Position numbers and translations under genes: made by a program. DNA of 28,353 nucleotides, taken from Candidatus Methylomirabilota bacterium (lineage in GTDB: Bacteria; Methylomirabilota; Methylomirabilia; Rokubacteriales; CSP1-6). The notes under the pieces are model-generated. The model was not told the origin of the DNA, did no database searches, and saw nothing but the letters and a program-made list of their open reading frames with translations. The DNA is taken from assembly GCA_046726415.1 (NCBI GenBank), contig JBKPAK010000043.1:1-28353 (forward strand). The letters run 5' to 3'. Below are positions 1 to 11,538 of the stretch, in pieces (positions within the stretch are counted from its first letter, which is position 1; the number at the start of each line of letters is the position of its first letter).

Positions 1-498
1 CCCGGAAGCCGGCGCCGGTGGACGCGGTCTCGAAGGATCATGAAGGCGGACGTCCAGGTTGCCATCGGGACGGGCCAGAACGATGCGATCCCCCGAAATG
101 GTCTGCACCGTTCCTCCGGCGATCGCATCGCCCAAACGGTAGCCGGCCACTCGCTTGGTGGTTGGATCTTCGAGATACGCGATCGACGCCCCCTCTCGAA
201 CCACGACGCCGTAGAGATTCGGCTTCGGCAAGGTGACGGTGGGAGCCACCGGTGCTGGCGGGGCCTCGCTCCTAGTCGGGCTGAACAGATTGCGCGCGGC
301 GATGGTCGAGTACGCCGCGGCCGCCGGCGTCGATCCTCCATTGACCGGATTCGCGGCGGGGGTCGGCCGCGCCGCCGGGCGCGGACGAGCCGGGTCCGGC
401 GCGGGCCATGGGGTGCGCGACGTGCGCACGATCAAGCCGATGAACAGGGCGCAGACCGCGAGCAGGACAAAGTTGATCGCCAGGAGTTTCTTGGGCAC
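1..498 (-). CDS. gspC: Type II secretion system GspC-like protein (3' end beyond window edge; absent from ORF track)
   Basis: Hand translation from GTG at 498 is open to position 1: MPKKLLAINFVLLAVCALFIGLIV (TM), a Pro-rich linker, RNLFSPTR, then LYGVVVREGASIAYLED...YRLGDAIAGGTVQTISGDRIVL, typical of the GspC HR domain. Starts 4 nt after the gspM stop. Confidence 0.75.
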   Translation of the reverse strand, partial: MPKKLLAINFVLLAVCALFIGLIVRTSRTPWPAPDPARPRPAARPTPAANPVNGGSTPAAAAYSTIAARNLFSPTRSEAPPAPVAPTVTLPKPNLYGVVVREGASIAYLEDPTTKRVAGYRLGDAIAGGTVQTISGDRIVLARPDGNLDVRLHDPSRPRPPAPASG

Positions 499-502
499 TG
501 CG

Positions 503-1063
503 CTAAGTACGCCCGGTCAGAATGAAGCCCGACAGCGTGACGGTGGCCAGAAGGTCTTTGGGCTGACTGACATTGACCACGCGGAGCTTCAGGTCCTGAA
601 TGGTAAGGAGTTTGGGTGCCCCCTCCAGGCGGGAGAGGAGGTCGACGAGCTGGCGAATTTCGCCGGACACCGTGATCTCGATGGGGACTTCGAGGATTTC
701 CCCGCGATCGATGGGCGGCAGGATCCGTTCGCTGCGGACTTGCGTGTTGACCTGGGTGGCCGTTTCTTTGACGAGCTTTTGCAGCTCGGAGGCCGCGACC
801 GCCGGCGTGGTCGAGGTGAGGAATCGGCCGGACTTCGCGCTGATTTTGGCGCCGACGCTCTCCAGCTCTGCGTTGATGGCTTCCCGGCGCCCCACGAGCT
901 CGAGGCGGCGCGCCAGCAGCTCGCGCCGCGCCGGGATCACCTCGCGCGCCATGCGGGTCCGATCGATGACGGGCTCGACGATGAAAAACCACCCGCCCAG
1001 GAGGATGGCTGCGCCGACTGCGCCCAGGATGAGGCCGCGCTCCCGCCGCGAGAGCGTAGCCAT
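503..1063 (-). CDS. gspM: Type II secretion system protein M (GspM/PilO-like)
   Basis: LSRRER followed by a TM helix, coiled coil and a ferredoxin-like C-terminus (QLVDLLSRLE...LTIQDLKL). TGATG overlap with gspL. Confidence 0.8.
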   Translation of the reverse strand: MATLSRRERGLILGAVGAAILLGGWFFIVEPVIDRTRMAREVIPARRELLARRLELVGRREAINAELESVGAKISAKSGRFLTSTTPAVAASELQKLVKETATQVNTQVRSERILPPIDRGEILEVPIEITVSGEIRQLVDLLSRLEGAPKLLTIQDLKLRVVNVSQPKDLLATVTLSGFILTGRT

Positions 1064-2514
1064 CAGCGAGCCGCTCCGGCCGGCGCCCCGGGTGGAACGG
1101 TTTCAGCACCCCGCGCCCCTGGCTGCCCACGCCCAGGTCCACGGGGAACCGGACCGGGAGATGGCGGCGCGGCGGTGGTAGGCTGCCCAGCGACGTTCTC
1201 CCAGGCCGCCTTGATGCGGAACTGTTCCTTGTCGCGGCCGCGGGTGACGGGCGACGAGAATTCCACCCGATCGAGGCGTGGCGAATTCTCCAGGAGCGGA
1301 ATCAACCCGCTCGCGGACGATGACTGACCCGTCAATTCGACCCCCTTGGCATCGAAGGACAGGCTCGTCAGCCAGGCGTCTGCCGGAACGAGCTCGGTCA
1401 GCTCGCGAAGCACGGGCAGCGGTCGCAGGGCATTGGTCTCCAGCGACTCGATCGTCGCCAGGAGCTTGCGCTTGCGCTCCAGCTCCTTCTGGACCTGCTC
1501 GACCGCGCGCACCTGTGGGGTGAGCGACTCGATCTTTTGGTTGGTAGTTACCAGGTGGCGCTTGGCCCGCTGACCGGGATAGAGGAGCGCCCACAAGCCC
1601 AGGCTGATCGTGACGACGAGCATGCCAATGGTCACCCACTGCGCTCCGCTGATGCGGCGGGGCCGGCGCTCGGCGGGGATGAGGTCGAGCGGACGGGCGC
1701 CCCGCCGGGCTGCCACGGCAATAGCCAGCTCGGACAGCCCGGGCGGCGCTTCGAGCGCGCCCGCGAGCAAGCGCGCGGCTCGCGGCGTGTAGGGTGGTGC
1801 GGAGACGGGAGCATCGAGAGTCATCAGAGGGGCGCCGGCAAGCTCCGCCTCACCCGAGAGCCAGATCGCATCGCAGGCACGCCACCGCAACACGGCGTAA
1901 CTTCGACGGATCTCCTCGGCCAATTGTTCATCGTTGGTGGTGGCGGTGGTCCGGCTCAGGACGAGCTGCCCCCCTGCCGCGAACAGGAGATCCGCGCCCA
2001 GCGGGCTTCGGTGGACCCACACCACCCGCTGCGTGCGGTCGAGGCGCACCAGGCCGAGCAAATCATGGGGGGCCACGGTCACCGAGCTAGGGCGAAGGCG
2101 TCCCTCGTCAGCGATGCGCAGGGCGCCCTCCACCACGCGACGGTCGGCGCCGGCCACCAGGACGCGGCGCGATTCGGCGGAAGGAGCGCCGCCGTTGGCC
2201 GGGAGGGGCAGGAAGTCGAAGGCGGCGTCATCCGCGGGAAACGGCAAATGGCGCTCCAGCTCGAAGCGCACCATCTCCCGCATGTCACCACCAAGCAGGG
2301 GGAAGTCGATGGGCTTCACCGTGACCGTGGAGCGGGGAATCCCGATGGCCACCGCGCGAGCCGTGAGCTTGCGCGCGTCGAGCTCGGCCCGGAGGGCCTC
2401 CGCGGGATGCTCCGCCTCTACCACGAACGCCTGCGCGCGGCGGCCCTGGATGGCCGCCACCACGAGGCGGTTCCCGGCGAGGATGAGAGCAAGCCTGGTC
2501 AGCTGGGAAATCAC
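1063..2514 (-). CDS. gspL: Type II secretion system protein L (PilM-like cytoplasmic domain + TM + PilN-like domain)
   Basis: MVRFELERHLPF motif, LDLIP before a single TM, and a PilN-like LRELTELVPADAWLTSLSF...ELTG segment. Lies between gspK and gspM. Confidence 0.8.
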   Translation of the reverse strand: MISQLTRLALILAGNRLVVAAIQGRRAQAFVVEAEHPAEALRAELDARKLTARAVAIGIPRSTVTVKPIDFPLLGGDMREMVRFELERHLPFPADDAAFDFLPLPANGGAPSAESRRVLVAGADRRVVEGALRIADEGRLRPSSVTVAPHDLLGLVRLDRTQRVVWVHRSPLGADLLFAAGGQLVLSRTTATTNDEQLAEEIRRSYAVLRWRACDAIWLSGEAELAGAPLMTLDAPVSAPPYTPRAARLLAGALEAPPGLSELAIAVAARRGARPLDLIPAERRPRRISGAQWVTIGMLVVTISLGLWALLYPGQRAKRHLVTTNQKIESLTPQVRAVEQVQKELERKRKLLATIESLETNALRPLPVLRELTELVPADAWLTSLSFDAKGVELTGQSSSASGLIPLLENSPRLDRVEFSSPVTRGRDKEQFRIKAAWENVAGQPTTAAPPSPGPVPRGPGRGQPGARGAETVPPGAPAGAAR

Positions 2515-2550
2515 GGTCTCAGAATACGTTCACCGGAGGTTCGGGCCCCA

Positions 2551-2580
2551 ATTCTACGTCGGTGGGCGCGCGATCCGCAA
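2551..2580 (-). promoter_or_regulatory. Putative internal sigma70-type promoter upstream of gspL
   Basis: Minus strand TTGCGG-N18-TAGAAT in the only sizeable gap (78 bp) of the gsp operon. Confidence 0.45.
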
Positions 2581-2592
2581 TGCGGCGTGAGA

Positions 2593-3540
2593 TCAGCGGA
2601 CTCCCGACCAGCTGCGCACGCGCATCTGAGGTCGGTTGAGATCGCCGCCGGTCTCCACGATGGCCGTGAGACGGGCATGGGGCTTGCCGTCGAGGAGACC
2701 AACCGCCTCGATCCGATAGATTCGGCTCTCCGCCGCCAAGCCGCGGTTGGTGAACCGCGGGGGGACAGTGAAGTAGGGGATCTCGCGTCGCGTGGCTTGG
2801 ATCTCGATAATCTCGGCGTCAGACAGCCCGAGCGTCGACAGCACGAGTTTGCTGGCGGTGTTGATATTGACGTTCCCCCTTCCGAACACGGTGACGACAT
2901 CGGCGAGCGCTGGCCGCTCGGCGGTTCCGCGGAAGAGCTCCGGCGTGATCCCTTTGATCTGCAGCAGCTCGTTGATCGACTCGAGATTGCCGTCGCGGGC
3001 GCGATAGGGGACGGGGAGCTGCAGGTAGTAGTCGTCGCTCTCGGCGCCGCTGAGCCGGTGTTCACCGTTTTCGTCGCGCCAGTCTTGGATCGAGTCCACG
3101 ATGGTATCGCGCTGTGGCTTCTCGATGTCCATGAGCTGGAGCAGCCGGTCAAGACGCGCCGGCGGCGTGTTGTTGATGTCGAGGCGCGCCATCTCGTCCG
3201 TGATCCGGTACGAGTACTTGCCGTCACCCAGCGGCACCTCCTCGCGCGCCAGTCGTTTGAGGGGCAGACGGTCGCGCGTGTAGAACGTCAGCGCCCCGTC
3301 CTCGGCCTCCGTCACATACGCAGCCTGCCCCGCGATTTCGCGCACGGCGTTTTGCACGGCGGCCTCCGCCAGATAGCCGGCCATCAGCGTGTCCTTGTAA
3401 TTTCGGGCGGCTCGGGCCTCGAGGCGCATCGAGTAGGCGAACTCCGCGCCCAGCAGCCCGATCAGGGCCAGCACGAGTAGTACGGCGATCATGGCGAAGC
3501 CCCGTTCCCCCGCCACCCCGCGGTTCCGGCGGCCCGTCAT
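2593..3540 (-). CDS. gspK: Type II secretion minor pseudopilin GspK
   Basis: RG|FAMIAVLLVL class III signal without Glu5 (typical of GspK), LDINN, DSIQDWRD, GAESDDYY, ELLQIKGIT and VNINTAS motifs. Confidence 0.92.
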   Translation of the reverse strand: MTGRRNRGVAGERGFAMIAVLLVLALIGLLGAEFAYSMRLEARAARNYKDTLMAGYLAEAAVQNAVREIAGQAAYVTEAEDGALTFYTRDRLPLKRLAREEVPLGDGKYSYRITDEMARLDINNTPPARLDRLLQLMDIEKPQRDTIVDSIQDWRDENGEHRLSGAESDDYYLQLPVPYRARDGNLESINELLQIKGITPELFRGTAERPALADVVTVFGRGNVNINTASKLVLSTLGLSDAEIIEIQATRREIPYFTVPPRFTNRGLAAESRIYRIEAVGLLDGKPHARLTAIVETGGDLNRPQMRVRSWSGVR

Positions 3541-4247
3541 TCGACCCCGATCCTCATGGGCACGATCATGGGTGGGAGGGTCTCAGCCCGGCCATCGACG
3601 ATCATCCCTACCGTGATCTCGATGGCGGAGGGCGGGCTGTCGTCGTCCTCCCAGGCGGTCTGCCAGCCGTTGGTATCGTCGAGGTAGCGGAACGAAAGCG
3701 ACGTCACCGTGGGATCGCGCAAGACGACGATGGCGTCCTTGAAAGGGTCGTGGTTCGGCAACGCCCGCTCCCGGATCACGAGCCCTTCTCCCTCGACCCG
3801 CGACAGGGCCACCGCCGTGAAGGCAATGGCGGCGGCCAGGGGGAATGGTGGAGCTTGGGACACGAATTCGAGCGTCGACGCTTCGCCGCGGAAGAGCAGG
3901 CGCAGCTCCCGAGCCTCTCCCAGTGGACCGCGGTAGGGATAGGCCGCGCCTACCGCGCGGGTGAGGAGCGTGGTCAAGCTTCGAACATGCTGGTGAGCTT
4001 CGATGCGTGCTTCGCCGCGCTGGACCGCCGCGAGGACGACGCGCAGCCCGCCGAACGCCGTGACCAGGAGCGTCGCCACGATGGCCAGGGCGATGATGAG
4101 CTCGACCAGCGTGAAGCCGGCCGCGCGAGGCCTGACCTCGACGAGCGTGAAGCCGGCCGCACGAGGCCTGACCTCGACCAGCGTGAAGCCGGCCGCGCGA
4201 GGCCCGAGCTCTTGGCGCGGCGCAGGAGTAGGGGAGGTGGCCATCAT
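3537..4247 (-). CDS. gspJ: Type II secretion minor pseudopilin GspJ with triplicated prepilin cleavage motif
   Basis: G|FTLVELIIALAIV N-methylation motif and C-terminal SLSFRYLD...WQTAW...P.AIEIT. Located between gspI and gspK. Confidence 0.85.
   Translation of the reverse strand: MMATSPTPAPRQELGPRAAGFTLVEVRPRAAGFTLVEVRPRAAGFTLVELIIALAIVATLLVTAFGGLRVVLAAVQRGEARIEAHQHVRSLTTLLTRAVGAAYPYRGPLGEARELRLLFRGEASTLEFVSQAPPFPLAAAIAFTAVALSRVEGEGLVIRERALPNHDPFKDAIVVLRDPTVTSLSFRYLDDTNGWQTAWEDDDSPPSAIEITVGMIVDGRAETLPPMIVPMRIGVE
4101..4204 (-). repeat. 36-bp tandem repeat x~3 encoding (V)RPRAAGFTLVE in the gspJ leader
   Basis: Units at 4101-4136, 4137-4172 and 4173-4204 (ctcgaccagcgtgaagccggccgcgcgaggcctgac). 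The middle unit differs at two synonymous positions. Confidence 0.97.
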
Positions 4248-4840
4248 CCCCCTCCTCGTCCCCGGAAGCCGCTGGCCGGCGACTCTCGCCCGCCCGCGGG
4301 GCCCGAGGAGGTTCCCGTGCCAGTTTGTCCCCTCCCGAAGGTGCGCGAAGAGGTTCCGGTGCCGGTCTGTTCACTCCCGAGGGTACCCGAAGAGGTTCCG
4401 GTGCCGGTCTCGATACCGAACGGTTGGCCCCCGCGGGTGGGATCGGAGGTGGCTGGCACGGTGCGAAGCGTCGAGACTTCGAGCCGTCGCTGTTCGTCCC
4501 AGGTGACGATCACCGAGATCTGGAAGACGCGCCACTTCTGAGGGGCATTGGCCGGGGTGAGGTCGGGAGTCTCCAAGACCCTCGAGGTGCGCTGCCAACT
4601 GAAGCGGCCCTCCGTGCCGCTGTCGGTACCCTCAACGGGCACCAGAAGCTCGCGGGCCCGGTGATCGGCCACGATGATGGCCCGCTGCTGATCTCCCGCC
4701 GCCTTGAGCAGCCGGAGTCCTTGCCCCACCGCTTGGATGGAAACCACCACGGCGGTCCCGAGGATGGCCAGGGCGACGAGCACCTCGAGAAGGGTGAAGC
4801 CGCGCTGACCGGAAACCCGGAGAGACGGCCGCGATCTCAC
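4244..4840 (-). CDS. gspI: Type II secretion minor pseudopilin GspI with Gly/Thr/Ser-rich repeat tail
   Basis: RG|FTLLEVLVALAILG motif and GRFSWQR...ISVIVTW core. 4-nt overlaps with gspH and gspJ. Confidence 0.85.
   Translation of the reverse strand: MRSRPSLRVSGQRGFTLLEVLVALAILGTAVVVSIQAVGQGLRLLKAAGDQQRAIIVADHRARELLVPVEGTDSGTEGRFSWQRTSRVLETPDLTPANAPQKWRVFQISVIVTWDEQRRLEVSTLRTVPATSDPTRGGQPFGIETGTGTSSGTLGSEQTGTGTSSRTFGRGQTGTGTSSGPAGGRESPASGFRGRGGG
4305..4410 (-). repeat. 42-bp imperfect tandem repeat x~2.5 encoding (Q/E)TGTGTSS-x6 in the gspI tail
   Basis: Units start at 4305, 4347 and 4389 (gaRgaggttccSgtgccRgtYt...). Confidence 0.9.
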
Positions 4841-5295
4841 AAGCGTGAAATGCGCACCCGTCCCGTCAGCGGATCGACGCTGACGAGGAAGAGAAGCCCG
4901 CCAGCCCCGAGGCGGAACTCGCCCCCGCTCGATACGCCATGGGGCTCGAAGCGAATGGTGAGCGCAGGTGGCGGCGTGGCCACGATGGAAAGCTGGCTGG
5001 AGAGCGCCCGGGACATGCGAACGTCAGCCTCGTCGGCAATGACCGTCATCCGCCGCTCGAGCGGGCTCACCTCGACCCGATGGGGCCGCTGGGTGGCGAC
5101 CGCCTGTTCGCGCGCGTGGCGCAAGGTCGCCGAGAATCCCGCCACCTCGGCCCGCAATCGCATGCCATCCGTGGTCCGGCCGACGACGGGCGCGGCGACC
5201 GCCGTCGCCACGGCGATCACGAACAGCACCAGGACGACTTCGATGAAGGTGAAGCCCGGCGCCGCTACCGCTGCGCGTGCTGGGTGTCGCTCCAT
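4837..5295 (-). CDS. gspH: Type II secretion minor pseudopilin GspH/FimT-like
   Basis: ATG at 5295 (MERHPARAAVAAPG|FTFIEVVLVLFVI), LRHAREQAV, IRFEPHGVSSGGEF, and VDPLTGRVRI C-terminus. The ORF-track start at 5706 is too far upstream. Confidence 0.88.
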   Translation of the reverse strand: MERHPARAAVAAPGFTFIEVVLVLFVIAVATAVAAPVVGRTTDGMRLRAEVAGFSATLRHAREQAVATQRPHRVEVSPLERRMTVIADEADVRMSRALSSQLSIVATPPPALTIRFEPHGVSSGGEFRLGAGGLLFLVSVDPLTGRVRISRL

Positions 5296-5711
5296 GAGAC
5301 GATGTCCGCGCTCTCCCCCTCGCCACCGGGCGCCCCGTCCGCTCCCTCCGACCAGAGGTCGTACTCGCCGAACTGGCCCGGACAGCACTTGTACTTGTAG
5401 GGGAATCCCCACGGATCGGCGGGGACCGCCTTCTTGAGATAGGGGCCGTTCCAACTCGCCGCGTTCGCAGGCCTCTGTTGGAGCTGGTCCAGGCTCGTGG
5501 GATACGAACCGTTGTCGAGTCGAAACTGATCGAGCGAAGATCCAAGCAGCTCGATCTGTGCCCGCGCGGTCGCCTGTTTCGACTTGCTGACCTGGCCCCA
5601 CAGCCGGGGTCCGACCAGACCGACCAGGAGGCCGAGGACGATGATGACCACGAGAAGTTCCACGAGGGTAAATCCCGACTGATCGCGAAGTCGCCGACGC
5701 CAACATTTCAT
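5265..5711 (-). CDS. gspG: Type II secretion major pseudopilin GspG
   Basis: G|FTLVELLVVIIVLGLL, LDQFRLDNGSYP, WNGPYLKK.VP.DPWG and GADGAPGGEGESADI. ATGA overlap with the gspF stop. Confidence 0.97.
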   Translation of the reverse strand: MKCWRRRLRDQSGFTLVELLVVIIVLGLLVGLVGPRLWGQVSKSKQATARAQIELLGSSLDQFRLDNGSYPTSLDQLQQRPANAASWNGPYLKKAVPADPWGFPYKYKCCPGQFGEYDLWSEGADGAPGGEGESADIVSWSDTQHAQR

Positions 5712-6919
5712 AGCGGAATCTCGTTGATGGAGAAGATGGCGAGCAGCATGGCCACCACGATGAACGCCACCACCGCGCCCATGGCCAGGATGATGGCCGG
5801 CTCCAGGAGCCCGATCATTCGTCGCAGCTCGCTGCGCACATCGCCTTCCACGGTTTCGGCAGTTTTCAGCAGCATGTCCTCCAAGCGTCCCGTTTCCTCG
5901 CCGACGCGGACCATGTGGATGGCGAGCGGCGGAAACGGCGTGTGCTCTTTCATGGCGGCGGCGATGGTACCACCGCGCTTCACGGTGTCCGACAGACGCT
6001 GCACCGCGCGTCCCACGACCTGGTTCATCATGATGTCGCCGACCACGGTCAACGCGCCCAGTACCGGCACGCCGCTGCGCAGCATGGTGCCGAGCGTGCG
6101 GGTGAAGCGGGCCGTCTCGACTTTGATCATGATCGTGCCCACCATGGGCAAGCGCAGGACGATGCGATCCCACTGGAGCCGGCCCTCGGCCGTGCCCGTC
6201 CATATCCGCCACGCCAAGATCGCCCCGAACAGGACCAGCAGTCCCACCCACCAGTACGATTGGACGGCCAGGCTCGTCGACAAGAGAATCTGGGTGGGCA
6301 GGGGAATGGCCTGGCCCATGTCTGCAAAGATGGTGGCGAACCGGGGAATCACGAAGGTCATCAGAAACACGATGGCGCCCGCCCCCACGGTGGTGATGAC
6401 GACCGGGTAGATCAACGCGGAAATGATGGCCTCCGCGAACGCGTGGCGAGCTTCCTGGAACTCGGCCAGCCGGCGCAGGGTGGCCTCCAGCACCCCTCCC
6501 TTCTCTCCGGCGCGGACCATGTTGATATAGAGGCGCGAGAAGGGGCGGGGATGGTGCTTGGCGAGGGCGTCGCTGAGGGAGGAGCCCCCCCGCACGCTGT
6601 GCAGGAGGTCGGCGACAACAGTCTTCACCCGCGCATTCGGGGCCAGCTCCTCCAGGATGGAGAGGGCGCGATCGAGCGGCATCCCCGCCTCGGCGAGGGT
6701 GGCGAGCTGCTGGGTGAGGGCCAAGAGGTCACGGGCCCGGAAGCCCCGCGACAAGCGGAGGTCCCGCCACGACCGGCGCTCTCCCTGCGGGGTGACTTTG
6801 ACCGGAAAGTACGCCTCGCGGTGGAGCCGCTCGATGACGGCGCGAGCATCCGAGGCCTCCATGACCCCATCGACCGTCTGGCCGCGGCGATCGGCCGCGC
6901 GATAGGCAAACACCGGCAT
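5708..6919 (-). CDS. gspF: Type II secretion inner membrane platform protein GspF
   Basis: MPVFAYRA.D..G start, MVRAGEKGG.L, ALIYP, MVRVGEETG.L and LLEP motifs, three TMs. Confidence 0.96.
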   Translation of the reverse strand: MPVFAYRAADRRGQTVDGVMEASDARAVIERLHREAYFPVKVTPQGERRSWRDLRLSRGFRARDLLALTQQLATLAEAGMPLDRALSILEELAPNARVKTVVADLLHSVRGGSSLSDALAKHHPRPFSRLYINMVRAGEKGGVLEATLRRLAEFQEARHAFAEAIISALIYPVVITTVGAGAIVFLMTFVIPRFATIFADMGQAIPLPTQILLSTSLAVQSYWWVGLLVLFGAILAWRIWTGTAEGRLQWDRIVLRLPMVGTIMIKVETARFTRTLGTMLRSGVPVLGALTVVGDIMMNQVVGRAVQRLSDTVKRGGTIAAAMKEHTPFPPLAIHMVRVGEETGRLEDMLLKTAETVEGDVRSELRRMIGLLEPAIILAMGAVVAFIVVAMLLAIFSINEIPL

Positions 6920-6923
6920 GGCG

Positions 6924-8618
6924 TTACGAGTCTTCCTGAGTGACCCGCATCACCTCGTCGACGGTTGTCACGCCCTCCTGCGCCCGCGCCCACCCGTCGA
7001 GGCGCAGGCTAACCATTCCGCTCTCGATGGCGTGACGGCGGATCTCGCGAGTCGAGACACGGCGCAGCGTGAGGCTGCGCACTTCTTCGGTAATCTCGAA
7101 GAGTTCGTAGATCCCGGTGCGACCGCGATACCCGGTGCCCCGGCACTCTGAGCAGCCCCGCCCGCGGAAGAGTTTGACGGGCGCATCCACGCTCACCCCG
7201 AGCGCGTGCAGGTCGGCCGCCGAGGGCACATCGGGTTCCCGGCAGACCTCGCAAATACGTCGGACGAGCCGCTGGGCCAAGACGCCCTCCAGCACAGACG
7301 AGAGCAGGAAGGATTCCACGCCCATGTCCTGCAGCCGGGTGATGGCGCCCGGCGCGTCGTTGGTGTGGAGGGTGGAGAACACGAGGTGTCCCGTGAGGGC
7401 GGCCTGGATGGCGATTTCCGCAGTTTCCAGGTCGCGAATCTCGCCGACCAGGATCACGTCAGGGTCCTGCCGGACGATGTGGCGCAGCCCGGTGGCGAAG
7501 GTCAGGCCGATCTTCGGTTTCACCGGGATCTGGTTGACCCCCTTCAGCTGGTACTCGACGGGATCCTCGACCGTGAGGATCTTGCGGTCGGGCGAGTTGA
7601 TCTTGTCCAAGGATCCGTAGAGCGTGGTGGTCTTGCCCGACCCCGTGGGCCCAGTGACCAAGACGATCCCATGCGGCAAGGTGATGAGCCGTTCGAAGCG
7701 CTTGAGCATGGTCGCGCCGAAGCCCAGGCGCTCGAGGGGCAGGAACACGCTCGAGCGATCGAGAAGCCGCATGACGATCGACTCACCGTGCACCGTGGGC
7801 ATGGTGGAGACTCGGATGTCCACCCGGCGGCCGTGCAGGGTCACGCGGATGCGCCCGTCCTGGGGCAGCCGTCGCTCGGCGATGTTCATCTCGGCCATGA
7901 TCTTGATGCGCGAGGTCACGGCCGCCTGCAGCCGCCGGGGCGGCGCTTCTTGCTCGAACAGGATGCCGTCGATGCGGTACCGGATTCGCAGGGTGTCTTC
8001 GAAGGGCTCGATGTGGATATCCGACGCTCCGGAATCGATGGCGTTCTCGACGAGGAGGTTCACCAGCCTGACCACGGGGGCCTCGAAGGCCATGTCGCGC
8101 AGGTGGTTGACGTCCTCGTCAGCCTCGACGGTCCGATCCTCGTCCATACCCTCCACGATCCGCTGCAAGGGCGTGGCCACACCCTCATAGGTGCGATCGA
8201 TGGCTTCGGTGATCGCTTCGGGGTGACTGACCACCAGCTTCACGTCGAGCCCGGTGCTCTGCCGCAAGTCGTCGGCGATGAGGGGATTCAAGGGGTCCGC
8301 GGTGGCGACGGTGAGGATACTTCCCTCCACGCTCACGGGGCAGACGGCATATTGCCTGAGGTACTTGGGGGACAGGTTCTTGATCACGGGAAGCGGCGAC
8401 GGCAATTCGTCACGGGTCAGGTACGCCAGACCTCGTTGGTGGGCGAGGGCGCGCAGAACGTCCTCGCCGGAAACCGCGCCCATGCTGACGAGGACCTCGC
8501 CGATCCGCTCGCCGCTCTTCTCCGCCCGGGCCAGGGCATGGGCGACGGCGTCGGCAGTCGCGAGTCCCTCTTCGACAAGGATTTCGCCGAGGAGTCGCGG
8601 AGGAGCTGCAATGGCCAT
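6924..8618 (-). CDS. gspE: Type II secretion ATPase GspE with N-terminal MshEN-like domain
   Basis: ASDIHIEP, AERRLPQDGR, Walker A GPTGSGKTT, RQDPDVILVGEIRD, LTGHLVFSTLHTND, and CxxC...CxxC. ATG at 8618 preferred because a GGAG RBS lies upstream. Confidence 0.97.
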   Translation of the reverse strand: MAIAAPPRLLGEILVEEGLATADAVAHALARAEKSGERIGEVLVSMGAVSGEDVLRALAHQRGLAYLTRDELPSPLPVIKNLSPKYLRQYAVCPVSVEGSILTVATADPLNPLIADDLRQSTGLDVKLVVSHPEAITEAIDRTYEGVATPLQRIVEGMDEDRTVEADEDVNHLRDMAFEAPVVRLVNLLVENAIDSGASDIHIEPFEDTLRIRYRIDGILFEQEAPPRRLQAAVTSRIKIMAEMNIAERRLPQDGRIRVTLHGRRVDIRVSTMPTVHGESIVMRLLDRSSVFLPLERLGFGATMLKRFERLITLPHGIVLVTGPTGSGKTTTLYGSLDKINSPDRKILTVEDPVEYQLKGVNQIPVKPKIGLTFATGLRHIVRQDPDVILVGEIRDLETAEIAIQAALTGHLVFSTLHTNDAPGAITRLQDMGVESFLLSSVLEGVLAQRLVRRICEVCREPDVPSAADLHALGVSVDAPVKLFRGRGCSECRGTGYRGRTGIYELFEITEEVRSLTLRRVSTREIRRHAIESGMVSLRLDGWARAQEGVTTVDEVMRVTQEDS

Positions 8619-8634
8619 GCGATACTCTCCCGGC

Positions 8635-8643
8635 ATGGTAGCA
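8635..8643 (-). promoter_or_regulatory. Putative extended -10 promoter for the gsp operon
   Basis: Minus strand TG-c-TACCAT, 16 nt upstream of the gspE ATG. Confidence 0.45.
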
Positions 8644-8701
8644 CAGTTCGTGCGCACGATCGGCGCCCTCTGGGCAGAGGACCCCACCCACGACGCGCCC
8701 T

Positions 8702-8734
8702 TTTGACGGACGGCTGAGGCAGAACTATTCACGG
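8702..8734 (-). promoter_or_regulatory. Putative ECF-sigma promoter facing gspE
   Basis: Minus strand ccgTGAATA-N17-CGTCAAA. GTCAAA is the RpoE-type -10 element, and the motif is mirrored at 8799-8830. Confidence 0.6.
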
Positions 8735-8798: not shown

Positions 8799-8830
8799 CC
8801 GTGAATCGGTCCTCCTTCCCCGCCGTCTAA
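8799..8830 (+). promoter_or_regulatory. Putative ECF-sigma autoregulatory promoter
   Basis: ccgTGAATC-N16-CGTCTAA, 36 nt upstream of the ECF gene start. TCTAA is an RpoE/AlgU-type -10. Confidence 0.65.
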
Positions 8831-8866: not shown

Positions 8867-9928
8867 GTGAACTCTGACGATCGGTTGCTGGTGGAACGGT
8901 GCCAGGCCGGCGATCTCGCCGCCTTCGAGCCCTTGGTCGAGAAGTACCGGCAGCGGGTGTGGCGACTCGCTTACAACGTTCTGCGGGATCCAGAGGAGGC
9001 GCGGGACGTTGCCCAAGACGCGTTTATCCGCGCGTACCAGGCGCTGGCGTCGTTCCGAGGGCAGTCGGCGTTTTACACTTGGTTGTTCAGGATCGTCATG
9101 AATCTGGCCGCCGACCGGGCGCGTCAGCGGGCGGCGCGGGGCCGGGCCTTCGGGACAGAACGAGTTCCGGAGGAGGACTGGGAACGGCTCATGACCGATC
9201 AAGGCGCATCGCCGGACAGCTCGGCGGCGCAGACGGAGGACCGCGAGCGCATCGCGAAGGCGCTCGGCACTTTGTCGGAAGATCATCGGGCGATTATTAT
9301 GCTAAGTGATGTCGAAGGCTTGTCGTATCGGGAGATCGCCGAAGTGCTGGACATCCCGATAGGTACCGTGATGTCGCGCCTGCACAACGCGCGGCGGCGC
9401 CTGCGAACGGCGCTCGGGCCGCTGTTGGCGGCGGTGTTCGCCCTGCTCCTCAGCTGGATGCCAGGACTCGTGCACGCACAGCCCCCCCCTCCTGTCCAGT
9501 CGCCCGGGACCCCTGCCTCAGCGGTGGTCTACTTTGGGGCGCGTGTCTATTTGGCCAGTGACAGCCCCCCTCCGTCCAACGTTCAGCCTTTTCCCACGAA
9601 CGAGCGGGTGGACCGCTACGTGTTGAAATTGCGCCAGCTTTTCCGCTATCAGCAGTACCATCCGCTCCAGCACGTCCGTGCCCAGGTCCCGGTGGGGACG
9701 ACGTACCGAGAGAGTTTGGCGGGCGATCGCCAGCTCGAGCTGACTCCCGAGGGCATGGGTGACAAGGCGATCCGCCTCCGGGTCCGGCTCGTGCGAGGGA
9801 GCCTCACCGAGGTGACGACGAACTTCGAAGCAACGCCCGGCACCCCGGCCGTGATTGGTGGAGTCCGTCACGGCGACGGCGTACTCATTATTCTTCTCTG
9901 GGCCAATCCTACCGATCCTACCCGCTGA
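8867..9928 (+). CDS. ECF (RpoE-like) sigma factor fused to a signal-peptide-like TM and an extracytoplasmic C-terminal domain
   Basis: Sigma2 (DVAQDAFIRAY...SFRGQSAFYTWLFRI..N) and sigma4 (GLSYREIAEVLDIPIGTVMSRLHNARRRLR) fill aa 1-183. They are followed by LGPLLAAVFALLLSWMPGLVHA|QPPPP and a ~150-aa beta-rich domain in one open frame. Confidence 0.9.
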   Translation: MNSDDRLLVERCQAGDLAAFEPLVEKYRQRVWRLAYNVLRDPEEARDVAQDAFIRAYQALASFRGQSAFYTWLFRIVMNLAADRARQRAARGRAFGTERVPEEDWERLMTDQGASPDSSAAQTEDRERIAKALGTLSEDHRAIIMLSDVEGLSYREIAEVLDIPIGTVMSRLHNARRRLRTALGPLLAAVFALLLSWMPGLVHAQPPPPVQSPGTPASAVVYFGARVYLASDSPPPSNVQPFPTNERVDRYVLKLRQLFRYQQYHPLQHVRAQVPVGTTYRESLAGDRQLELTPEGMGDKAIRLRVRLVRGSLTEVTTNFEATPGTPAVIGGVRHGDGVLIILLWANPTDPTR

Positions 9929-9954
9929 GTACTGCGCCGACAGCGTCCCGGCCC

Positions 9955-9990
9955 CGGCGCGGGGCTGGGGCCCCGCCATCCGAGGCGAGC
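9955..9990 (+). repeat. REP-like hairpin repeat copy
   Basis: cggcgcggggctggggccccgccatccgaggcgagc; same core as the copies at 20143 and 22202. Confidence 0.85.
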
Positions 9991-10008
9991 CTACGGAGGA
10001 CTGCGAAC

Positions 10009-11538
10009 GTGAGTGAGGGCGAGGAGCGCTACGCGCGAGAGCGAAGCCGCATCGAGCGGGGTCACGCCAAGTACCGAGACAAGCTCACGGCCGAGGGGAA
10101 GCTGTTCGTCCGCGAGCGTCTCGCACTGCTACTCGACCCCGACACCGAGTTCCAAGAGGATTGGCTCTTCGCCAGATCCGAGGAGACGGAGATGCCGGCC
10201 GATGGCGTGGTGACCGGCGTCGGGACGGTCGGAAGTCGACCAGTCTGCATCATGGCCAACGACTACACGGTGAAGGCCGGATCCTGGGGCGAGAAGACCG
10301 TGCAGAAGATCGTGCGCATCCAGGAGAAGGCGGCACGGTTACAGATTCCGTTGGTGTACCTGGTCGACGCCGCCGGTGGGCGCATCTCCGAGCAGATCAG
10401 GATCTTCCCCGGACGCTTCCACGCCGGGCGGATCTTCTACAACGAAGTCCAGCTCTCGGGCGTCGTGCCGCAGGTCTGTATCCTCTTCGGGCCATCCCCG
10501 GCGGGATCGGCCTACCTCCCGGCCCTGACCGACCTCGTGATCATGGTCGATGGCAAGGCCTCCCTCTACGTGGGCAGTCCCCGCATGGTGGAAATGGCGG
10601 TGGGGGAGAAGACCACCCTCGAGGAACTGGGCGGGGCCCGCATGCACTGCACAGTCTCTGGATGCGGTGATGTGCTGGCCACCTCCGACGAGGACGCCAT
10701 TCAGTTGGCTAAGCGATACCTCGCGTACATGCCGTCGTCCTACCGCGGGCGACCAACGAAGCGGGAACCGGCGGACCCGGAGCCCGGCCGCCCCATCGAG
10801 GACATCGTTCCCTACGACCAGCGCAAGTACTTCGACATGTACGAGGTGATCGACCGCATCATCGATGCGGGCTCATGGTTCGAGATCAAGCGACTCTTCG
10901 CCCGCGAGGTGATTGTCGGCCTGGCCAGCATCGGCGGGCACGTGATCGGCATCGTGGCGAATCAGCCAAAGGTGAAAGGCGGCGTTCTCTTCGTCGACTC
11001 CTCCGACAAGGCCGCTAAGTTCATCTGGCTGTGCAACGCCTACAACATCCCGCTCGTGTATCTCGCCGACGTCGCCGGCTTCATGGTGGGCTCGAAAGTC
11101 GAGCGCGAGGGGATCATCCGCCACGGGGCGAAGATGATCTTCGCGACCTCACAGGCCACGGTGCCCAAGATCTCGGTCATCGTGCGCAAGTGCTACGGCG
11201 CGGGACTCTACGCCATGTGTGGACAGGCCTTCGAACCCGATGCCGTGGTGGCTCTGCCACAGGGCCAAATCGCCATCATGGGGCCGGAGCCTGCGGTGAA
11301 CGCGGTCTACTACAACAAGATCATGGAGCTCCCGGACAGCGAGCGGGCGGCCTACGTCCGGCAGAAGCGGGAGGAGTACGCCCGCGATGTCGATACCTTC
11401 AAGCTGGCGTCGGAGATGCTCATCGACGGTATCGTGCCGGGCTCGATGCTCCGTCGGGAACTGATCACGCGCTTGCACTACGCCGAGTCGAAGCTCCACG
11501 AGTTTCCTGCCCGCCGCAACGGTATCTACCCCGTGTAG
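10009..11538 (+). CDS. Acyl-CoA carboxylase carboxyltransferase (beta) subunit, YngE/MccB/PccB family
   Basis: ERL..LLD, PADGVVTG.G, ANDYTVKAGSWG, LGGARMH..VSG, GIVANQP...GG, GFMVG...E..GIIRHGAK and RKCYGAG motifs. GGAGG RBS upstream. Confidence 0.93.
   Translation: MSEGEERYARERSRIERGHAKYRDKLTAEGKLFVRERLALLLDPDTEFQEDWLFARSEETEMPADGVVTGVGTVGSRPVCIMANDYTVKAGSWGEKTVQKIVRIQEKAARLQIPLVYLVDAAGGRISEQIRIFPGRFHAGRIFYNEVQLSGVVPQVCILFGPSPAGSAYLPALTDLVIMVDGKASLYVGSPRMVEMAVGEKTTLEELGGARMHCTVSGCGDVLATSDEDAIQLAKRYLAYMPSSYRGRPTKREPADPEPGRPIEDIVPYDQRKYFDMYEVIDRIIDAGSWFEIKRLFAREVIVGLASIGGHVIGIVANQPKVKGGVLFVDSSDKAAKFIWLCNAYNIPLVYLADVAGFMVGSKVEREGIIRHGAKMIFATSQATVPKISVIVRKCYGAGLYAMCGQAFEPDAVVALPQGQIAIMGPEPAVNAVYYNKIMELPDSERAAYVRQKREEYARDVDTFKLASEMLIDGIVPGSMLRRELITRLHYAESKLHEFPARRNGIYPV

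Follow-up and report, generated by a model that had tools for sequence, protein, structure and literature searches.

The DNA considered here, hereafter the window, is a stretch of 28,353 nucleotides (nt) from a Candidatus Methylomirabilota bacterium (contig JBKPAK010000043.1 of GenBank assembly GCA_046726415.1). It carries a gene, which we call sigma-D, that encodes an extracytoplasmic function (ECF) sigma factor, a hydrophobic segment resembling a signal peptide, and a carboxy-terminal domain, D, in one chain of 353 amino acids (aa). The source genome has one copy of the gene. Its parts are listed below, with the confidence of AlphaFold2 models given as predicted local distance difference test (pLDDT) and predicted template modeling (pTM) scores.

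8867..9928, + strand: sigma-D gene, a single open reading frame with a GTG start, 353 aa
8933..9133, + strand: sigma-70 region 2 (aa 23-89), Pfam PF04542 Sigma70_r2, E 1.4e-18
9242..9403, + strand: sigma-70 region 4 (aa 126-179), Pfam PF08281 Sigma70_r4_2, E 2.1e-17
9392..9478, + strand: signal-peptide-like tether with n-region RRRLR (aa 176-180), h-region ALGPLLAAVFALLLSWM (aa 182-198) and c-region PGLVHA (aa 199-204); putative signal peptidase I site after A204
9479..9520, + strand: Pro-rich linker (aa 205-218), delimited from alignment A1; pLDDT < 50 for aa 199-215
9521..9913, + strand: domain D (aa 219-349), a beta sandwich plus one helix, predicted to be periplasmic; AlphaFold2 pLDDT 91.3, pTM 0.79

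The sigma factor, its tether and the reality of the fusion

The sigma part of the protein is complete. In addition to the matches of regions 2 and 4, the Pfam family Sigma70_ECF (PF07638) spans aa 8-182, and the general ECF model of NCBIfam, TIGR02937, scores 121.5 bits against a cut-off of 42.9. Judged by these matches, sigma-D is an ECF (group 4) sigma-70 factor, with sigma2 and sigma4 as its only sigma regions. Its top NCBIfam match is the RpoE model TIGR02939, at 161.7 bits. Sigma-D is not an RpoE equivalog, given that this score falls below the cut-off of 236.15 and that the next gene does not encode an RseA-like anti-sigma factor.

In a full-chain AlphaFold2 model (pLDDT 79.7, pTM 0.42), the last helix of sigma4 runs unbroken into the hydrophobic stretch as a single helix of aa 165-196. 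Then come a disordered stretch (aa 199-215) and a domain with eight strands and one helix. An initial annotation of this DNA, made from the letters alone, had described a complete sigma2/sigma4 that continues without a stop, a last sigma4 helix that doubles as the n-region, and a beta-rich domain of ~130 aa behind a linker; the intact frame, the Pfam matches and the model bear out all three. The full-length model (pTM 0.42) has no fixed contact between D and the sigma part, an absence to which we give no weight because the two parts are predicted to lie on opposite sides of the membrane. The G+C content at third codon positions is 0.77 in sigma-D and 0.85-0.87 in both flanking genes.

The tether reads RRRLR-TALGPLLAAVFALLLSWM-PGLVHA|Q, with nt 9478 as the last base of codon 204, in agreement with the initial annotation. 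The end of sigma4 falls at aa 179-183 and the hydrophobic stretch begins at aa 182; the most hydrophobic 19-residue segment is aa 186-204 (mean Kyte-Doolittle value, 1.91). All 40 aligned relatives share residues rich in R and K, an apolar run and a short stretch that closes with A/V-x-A|Q. The Pro-rich linker is present in the window's clade and is missing in most of the 40. Across 113 fused proteins, position -3 is small in 110 (A 87, V 15, T 4, S 2, G 2, other 3) and position -1 holds A in 101, G in 9, S in 1, T in 1 and H in 1, which makes 112 with a small residue, while 16 residue types occur at position -2 and Q occupies position +1 in 98. The longest apolar run has a median length of 13 residues in the fused proteins (range 8-19, n = 108), compared with 12 (range 6-17) in the N-terminal signal peptides of 26 stand-alone relatives. 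The uncharged stretch of the fused proteins has an overall median of 22 residues (range 15-28).

We called signal peptides by rule, from a positive n-region, a short apolar h-region and small residues at -3 and -1. By this rule, the hydrophobic segment has the features of a Sec signal peptide and its signal peptidase I site rather than those of a long anchor helix. The n/h/c architecture with a V-x-A site after aa 204, as proposed in the initial annotation, is thereby upheld, since the small residues at -3 and -1 are conserved in the 113 relatives and the apolar core is short. The genome encodes an S26 signal peptidase (203.9 bits) and an M50/RseP-type site-2 protease (S2P; 239.7 bits).

Similar fusions are widespread in the window's order. 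A search with aa 190-353 returned 360 proteins at E <= 1e-3 among 1,367 candidates. The best 120 of the 360 all have sigma Pfam families; 112 of these 120 have both sigma2 and sigma4, and the other 8 are shorter pieces with sigma4 only. The source names of the listed fused relatives are Rokubacteria, Methylomirabilota and NC10. Domain D is present, nearly always in one copy, in 191 of the 251 genomes of the phylum that we scanned. Within the window's order (families f1 to f5) it is found in 164 of 182 genomes (f1, 143 of 158; f2, 18 of 21; f3-f5, 3 of 3). The genome tallies take in four unpublished genomes (G216, G217, G076 and G034), on which no specific claim is based; without them, the count is 187 of 247. 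The open frames around the genome matches are mostly 313-433 aa long: among the 150 matches listed, 141 lie in open frames of at least 313 aa and 9 in frames shorter than 300 aa. In a tree built from 14 of the 40 rows of alignment A1, the fused sigma factors form one group (support 99/97).

A lost stop codon, a frameshift or a misassembly that joined two genes would produce the same picture, and the 9 short frames could be read in that way, as could a frame break in G164, a genome from the window's genus. The break in G164, the one short frame that was read, however, lies in the Pro-rich linker after the A-x-A, and not at the junction of the sigma part with the hydrophobic segment, which share one frame there. 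In two further genomes, G163 and G226 (loci L032 and L043), the sigma factor, carboxyl transferase, solute-binding protein, gsp and phosphoenolpyruvate carboxykinase (PEPCK) genes are all split across frames, which looks like indel errors of those assemblies and makes their breaks a matter of assembly quality. Contigs from two other soil sequencing runs bridge positions 9365-9565 of the window without gaps, and one RNA-library contig agrees with the window throughout 9295-9447. One contig has a +1/-1 indel pair at 9406/9409 that keeps the frame, and one run, X2, reached only small portions of the stretch. Against hundreds of intact fused frames from many sources, an artifact has next to no chance of being the explanation. 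The initial annotation had named a stop or frameshift near the junction and a fusion limited to this assembly as the ways in which its proposal could fail. There is no such interruption, with contigs of other runs bridging the junction and the relatives being fused, and D is fused to sigma across the genomes of the window's order.

Domain D, the unfused module and the orphan anti-sigma factor

Residues 205-353 match no Pfam or NCBIfam family. The D model was built from 49 sequences, and a Pfam scan of these alignment members at E <= 10 gave scattered single weak matches, with the secretin family PF00263 absent from the 25 of 27 families shown. A sequence-profile search of the PDB with the D alignment gave three chance-level rows (E 0.36-0.69) and no secretin, and a protein atlas search found solely unnamed "hypothetical protein" clusters.

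Structure comparisons point to secretins. When the model of D was compared with the PDB in Foldseek, the first 11 rows were all secretins, with XcpQ as the best (E 3.3e-3) and none at E <= 1e-3. In a structure search independent of Foldseek, secretins (XcpQ, InvG, pIV, RcpA, GspD, PilQ, ExeD, PulD, BfpB and others) took ranks 1-12 of 48,161 chains with Z scores of 10.5-7.3, and an unrelated designed protein came at rank 13 (Z 6.8). The secretin matches align 102-110 residues at a root mean square deviation of 3.7-4.7 and 12-20% identity. The matched secretin ranges are 220-280 residues long, compared with ~130 for D, and about half of each range aligns. As modeled, D would correspond to a pared-down secretin core.

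Three versions of the D alignment, compared in hhalign with 32 secretin C-domains of the same class, scored 32-35 (P 1.7-3.6e-4; probability 37-50%), whereas reversed and 20 column-shuffled control alignments scored at most 18 (P >= 0.08). The hhalign alignment pairs the helix of D with the secretin blocks "L.VTP...V.l.V" and "G.p.viGG". We consider D to have a secretin-core-like fold, and its common descent with secretins to be likely but unproven. Like the C-domain core of secretins (GspD/XcpQ, InvG, pIV, RcpA, PilQ; PF00263) in its predicted fold, D differs from these proteins in having no N domains, no PF00263 match and a length of only ~130 residues.

Proteins containing D are not always fused to a sigma factor. 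A search of 1.84 billion representative sequences with aa 205-353 yielded 96 proteins at E <= 1e-3. Many of them are ~150-aa proteins that consist of a signal peptide and D, at 25-34% identity and without a Pfam family, and the rest include fused forms and fragments. The question raised by the initial annotation, whether homologs of the carboxy-terminal domain are fused or stand alone beside sigma/anti-sigma pairs, has the answer that both forms exist, with the stand-alone form in sigma/anti-sigma loci.

In f7, f8 and f13, sister families within the window's class, all five loci have the order sigma, anti-sigma, D on one strand. In Candidatus Moanabacter (locus L087), D directly follows an ECF sigma gene, and genes for a Cys/His-rich secreted protein and a zf-HC2 anti-sigma factor come next. 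Within its phylum, Verrucomicrobiota, D occurs in 37 of 201 sampled genomes. A same-strand ECF sigma gene lies upstream of D in all 30 verrucomicrobial loci (E 1e-31 to 3e-54 with a hidden Markov model [HMM] of the window's sigma part). The gap between the two is at most 30 nt in 11 of these loci, and a gene of ~400-750 nt intervenes in the other 19. An anti-sigma-like gene is found in 27 of the 30. These module anti-sigma factors consist of an anti-sigma part in the cytoplasm, a single membrane segment and a short tail in the periplasm that contains a conserved two-strand motif. For each of nine verrucomicrobial sigma factors tested, the window's sigma was the best match among the 19-26 ECF hits that each finds in the source genome (33-42% identity). 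The recurrent fourth gene of the verrucomicrobial loci encodes a small secreted Cys/His-rich protein with a conserved DDEGW-ALGGF start (L088:2023-2430, L092:985-1413, L098:1962-2480); tblastn found no homolog of it in the source genome. In G132 (locus L158), a small secreted protein encoded behind a match to the promoter motif described below has an N-terminal stretch similar to that of the Cys/His-rich protein.

Because the unfused D genes sit in sigma / anti-sigma / D operons, we conclude from gene order and similarity that the sigma-D protein is a sigma factor joined to the third component of its own module. Because the unfused D genes each carry a signal peptide, the tether is, on the same grounds, D's own signal peptide, with its signal peptidase motif retained and its cleavage presumed.

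The second component of the module is encoded elsewhere in the source genome (G000). A gene on contig C189 (49527-50063, - strand; Pfam zf-HC2) encodes a predicted single-pass anti-sigma factor with a ~40-aa periplasmic tail. In a six-frame translation of the genome, the module anti-sigma HMM matches C189:49527-50069 (- strand) with E 1.2e-12 over HMM positions 7-148 of 158, tail motif included. There is no sigma-like open reading frame on C189, and the neighbors of this orphan anti-sigma gene are unrelated. At E <= 1e-8 the orphan anti-sigma is found in 179 of the 251 genomes of the phylum (f1, 136 of 158), a count in which weak matches may be cross-hits because the HMM also matches six other anti-sigma factors of the source genome. 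Its family tallies are much like those of D. In all 21 genomes compared by eye, including four-contig assemblies, the anti-sigma and sigma-D genes are on different contigs. The fused system has the marks of the sigma / anti-sigma / D module, namely an anti-sigma factor with the conserved tail and a common promoter motif.

The initial annotation was right that the gene after sigma-D encodes a carboxyltransferase and that no anti-sigma gene lies beside sigma-D. Its description of sigma-D as a one-component system with no anti-sigma does not hold: judged by homology, the source genome is not anti-sigma-less, since it has a homolog of the module anti-sigma that is unlinked to sigma-D and is preceded by the same promoter motif.

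The promoter motif and the type II secretion operon

The features around sigma-D that bear on its regulation are the following.

8802..8830, + strand: ECF-type promoter motif TGAATC-N16-CGTCTAA (regular-expression match), with 36 nt from it to the GTG of sigma-D
8702..8731, - strand: second motif copy, TGAATA-N17-CGTCAAA, oriented toward gspE, whose ATG at 8618 is ~85 nt away; found in the window's genus only
1..8618, - strand: type II secretion system (T2SS) operon gspE-F-G-H-I-J-K-L-M-C, of which the C gene is GspC-like and which runs off the contig (Pfam); candidate target in the window's genus only
10009-11538, + strand: carboxyl transferase gene, next after sigma-D (Pfam)

The motif recurs before the genes of the module. 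Of 21 related loci, 19 have a regular-expression match ahead of sigma-D, between -48 and -129 relative to the start, and the other two have variants. The motif also precedes the sigma gene in 14 of the 30 loci from Verrucomicrobiota and in 3 of 5 loci of the sister families. The orphan anti-sigma gene is preceded by AGAATA-N17-CGTCCAA, and the motif is present at this position in 12 of 12 loci. In the source genome, only 5 nt separate the end of the motif from the anti-sigma GTG, a spacing suggestive of a leaderless anti-sigma message. A conserved "HENTG" frame upstream of the anti-sigma (C189:50006-50035 and loci L133-L144) is the promoter motif read in frame.

Across the whole 7.6-Mb genome, the pattern [TA]GAAT[ACG]-N15-17-CGTC[ACT]AA has 5 matches, compared with 0 for both the reversed and the complement-only controls, a count that is partly circular because the pattern was widened after the gspE and anti-sigma sites were known. 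Three of the 5 matches precede sigma-D, gspE and the anti-sigma gene. The other two, on C85 and C147, have no convincing gene behind them, and we do not count them as regulon members. The backward control is 0 in all five other genomes scanned. In G093, the only 2 matches are those before sigma-D and the anti-sigma gene, and both of these sites are also among the 4 matches in G072 and the 6 in G132. Candidate targets in other genomes, which include clpX, rubrerythrin and three small secreted proteins, among others, do not recur, and we do not claim them. The clpX match lies 65 nt before the gene (L145, G072:C1:93297-93324; Pfam zf-C4_ClpX, AAA_2) and could be due to chance or to a link with turnover of the released sigma.

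The head-to-head arrangement of sigma-D with a T2SS operon, noted in the initial annotation, is correct for the window, where gspE (6924-8618, - strand) is divergent from sigma-D. This synteny is conserved only in part. A T2SS operon is divergent from sigma-D and at most 9 kb away in 16 of 20 loci of family f1, but it is not nearby in the remaining 4, although other places in genomes of the same genera do encode orthologous secretins. A direct head-to-head placement of sigma-D and gspE is limited to the window's genus; in other genera, there is mostly other DNA between them. No T2SS genes were found in Pfam scans around unfused modules (L087 with 7-kb flanks; 30 loci with 1.5-kb flanks). The carboxyl transferase gene, by comparison, is directly adjacent to sigma-D in 18 of 20 loci, a linkage at least as conserved as that of the T2SS. 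A GTP-dependent PEPCK gene (Pfam) also lies downstream of sigma-D. The interval between sigma-D and the carboxyl transferase gene (9929-10008) has a G+C-rich inverted repeat with no T tail, and a terminator scan of this gap gave nothing usable.

Outside the window, the motif copy that faces gspE recurs at the same position in locus L031, and L032 carries a variant not matched by the regular expression; the window and these two loci are from one genus. The regular expression finds no such copy in the 13 other loci that have gspE. A conserved block before the gspE ATG (8618-8660 in the window and L031-L045, ~15 loci) consists of TGTGCTAACAT, a few bases, and GAGCATAGCATGG, and includes a sigma-70-like extended -10 element only ~20 nt before the start codon. 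Because the gspE-facing motif is seen in the window's genus alone, any control of the T2SS by sigma-D would be limited to that genus. There it is plausible, with a chance that we place at even or somewhat below. It is not a property of the sigma-D family. In four relatives, the gene next to the T2SS operon encodes a ~900-aa secretin, whose homolog in the source genome is C99:1-2778; in the source assembly, the T2SS operon is divided over two contigs, C43 (the window), at its start, and C99. The opening letters of C99 (1-60) resemble what we take to be sequencing-adapter remains.

Processing, known systems and significance

We propose that sigma-D is a precursor in which two of the three components of a conserved ECF module are joined, while the displaced anti-sigma factor is kept under the same promoter motif, a reading in which cleavage and release are conjectured and to which we give about an even chance. 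Being an internal signal peptide whose N-terminal flank is positively charged, the tether would insert with its N terminus in the cytoplasm and its C terminus outside, making D periplasmic. It would pin sigma4 to the membrane and leave the tethered sigma unable to serve RNA polymerase; such a form is unlikely to work in the polymerase because no more than 8 residues separate the sigma4 recognition helix from the apolar stretch. The conserved A-x-A site suggests that signal peptidase I cuts there, which would free D into the periplasm and leave sigma on a signal-peptide stub. An RseP-type site-2 protease would then remove the stub; RseP clears signal peptides from the membrane in Escherichia coli (PMC8144685), and signal peptidase is described as the site-1 protease for RsiV (PMC4183432). 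The released sigma would be held or let go by the anti-sigma factor as usual, and the anti-sigma would be the real gate. The end products would be the same three proteins as in unfused systems, with D probably the periplasmic partner of the anti-sigma tail. Sigma would drive its own gene, the anti-sigma gene and, in the window's genus, probably also the divergent T2SS operon, subject to the estimate given above.

Several observations weigh against this proposal. If signal peptidase cuts during export, the fusion alone senses nothing. The tree does not place the fused sigma factors firmly beside the unfused module sigmas (deep forks, 87/78), and two long-branched ECF sigma factors of the source genome adjoin the fused group. 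A tblastn search with 8 verrucomicrobial anti-sigma factors found no full homolog in the source genome; only the HMM found one. The six other source-genome anti-sigma factors that this HMM matches have E values of 7e-11 to 1e-4, and they adjoin other sigma genes or match the N-terminal part of the HMM only. In addition to the circularity of the motif count, the motif is found before sigma-D and not before the anti-sigma gene in G136 (3 matches), and G182 has no match.

The same tether could be read as a gated switch, in which the chain stays intact and inactive until a periplasmic signal on D exposes the A-x-A to signal peptidase and, subsequently, to S2P. Signal peptidase is the regulated site-1 protease of RsiV (PMC4183432) and of RsiP. 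Most of the 40 relatives, moreover, have only 2-3 residues between A-x-A|Q and the start of D's first strand, so that a folded D could mask the site. The window's clade, however, has a disordered Pro-rich linker of 14-25 residues, which should leave the site open, and stand-alone D proteins use the same site simply for signal-peptide cleavage. A self-contained switch would also not need the separate anti-sigma factor that has been kept. We consider such gating unlikely, if still deserving of attention. The tether might instead be an uncleaved signal anchor, with sigma released by a Prc- or DegS-like protease and then S2P, or with the anti-sigma clamping the protein on both sides of the membrane. 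An uncharged stretch with a median of 22 residues could span the membrane, and the hybrid protein IutY offers an analogous case, being processed by Prc and RseP (PMC8999054). A pure anchor, however, gives no reason for small residues at -3 and -1 with a free -2 across 113 sequences, and the apolar core is of signal-peptide length, which leaves a permanent tether with a slim chance.

The initial annotation had viewed sigma-D as an anti-sigma-less, one-component envelope sensor whose main task is to switch on the T2SS. The window's lack of an anti-sigma gene, the motif copy that faces gspE, the resemblance of D to the secretin core and the divergent T2SS operon within 9 kb in 16 of 20 loci are all compatible with that view. 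It conflicts with the conserved orphan anti-sigma in the same regulon. The gspE motif is confined to a single genus, and a conserved sigma-70-like block belongs to gspE itself; other DNA separates sigma-D from gspE in most other genera, the T2SS is not nearby in 4 of 20 loci, and unfused modules have no T2SS genes around them in Pfam scans. We judge this explanation to be very unlikely.

The arrangement is familiar in outline from the RpoE-RseA-RseB system of Escherichia coli, which consists of a sigma factor, a single-pass anti-sigma factor and a periplasmic protein that acts on the anti-sigma. The sigma-D module shares this three-part logic, which has also been described for the group ECF02 (PMC7826278), and its sigma is most like the RpoE models. 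It differs in that its sigma stays below the RpoE cut-off (161.7 versus 236.15 bits), its anti-sigma belongs to the zf-HC2 type, D has a fold match to secretins only in our searches, and sigma and the periplasmic part are one gene.

ECF sigma factors that carry a regulatory extension are a known class. The 2021 ECF re-classification describes C-terminal extensions in 19 groups (PMC7826278). IutY of Pseudomonas putida (ECF243) has a C-terminal membrane-spanning anti-sigma-like extension that is processed by Prc and RseP, and the actinobacterial groups ECF48, ECF52 and ECF53, for example SCO4117, have a C-terminal membrane-spanning anti-sigma-like extension as well (PMC8999054). The statement of the initial annotation that membrane-fused ECF sigma factors come mainly from Planctomycetes and Actinobacteria is thus incomplete, IutY being the experimentally studied case (PMC8999054). 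Like these proteins, sigma-D combines a sigma part in the cytoplasm with one membrane segment and an extracytoplasmic domain in a single chain. Proteolytic release that includes S2P has been proposed for them and shown for IutY; for sigma-D, we infer it. In these proteins, but not in sigma-D, the extension is an anti-sigma or resembles one, and a ZAS or FecR-like domain separates sigma4 from the membrane. In sigma-D, sigma4 goes straight into the signal peptide with no room for an anti-sigma domain, and Pfam finds no ZAS or FecR-like family between sigma4 and the hydrophobic stretch, so that sigma-D is not a sigma/anti-sigma hybrid. Its fused partner is the third, secreted component, and its anti-sigma is a separate gene.

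The sigmaV-RsiV system of Bacillus subtilis (PMC4183432) and sigmaP-RsiP resemble sigma-D in having a signal-peptidase-type site beside the membrane segment that holds an ECF sigma. There the site is in the anti-sigma and is unmasked by ligand binding, whereas in sigma-D it is in the sigma chain and would come from an ordinary signal peptide. Pfam finds no RsiV family in D. A full-text literature search retrieved no prior description of such a sigma-D fusion, and the main text and part of the supplement of PMC7826278 contain no mention of Rokubacteria, NC10 or secretin. As far as can be read from the sequence, what would be new relative to known extended ECF sigma factors is a chain with no anti-sigma domain, a signal-peptide tether, the fusion of the third component, and an anti-sigma that is a separate member of the regulon.

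It is also conceivable that sigma-D acts as a "pre-pro-sigma," which would yield free sigma only after Sec insertion, the signal peptidase I cut and site-2 clearance, so that its output would track export and processing. The freed D might then dock on the anti-sigma tail or on assembling secretins and in this way serve as a readout of secretin or T2SS assembly, with feedback to the T2SS operon. We regard this extension as speculative and improbable.

Domain D represents a widespread family without a Pfam or NCBIfam model that accompanies one ECF sigma/anti-sigma pair in at least two phyla. Within one phylum, the rearrangement can be traced from a sigma / anti-sigma / D operon to a fused sigma-D and a displaced anti-sigma gene that has a promoter copy to itself. 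The analysis also yields a defined promoter motif for this uncultured soil lineage, together with a predicted regulon that is very small. Should signal peptidase indeed cut sigma-D, one precursor would give rise to both a cytoplasmic transcription factor and a periplasmic protein.

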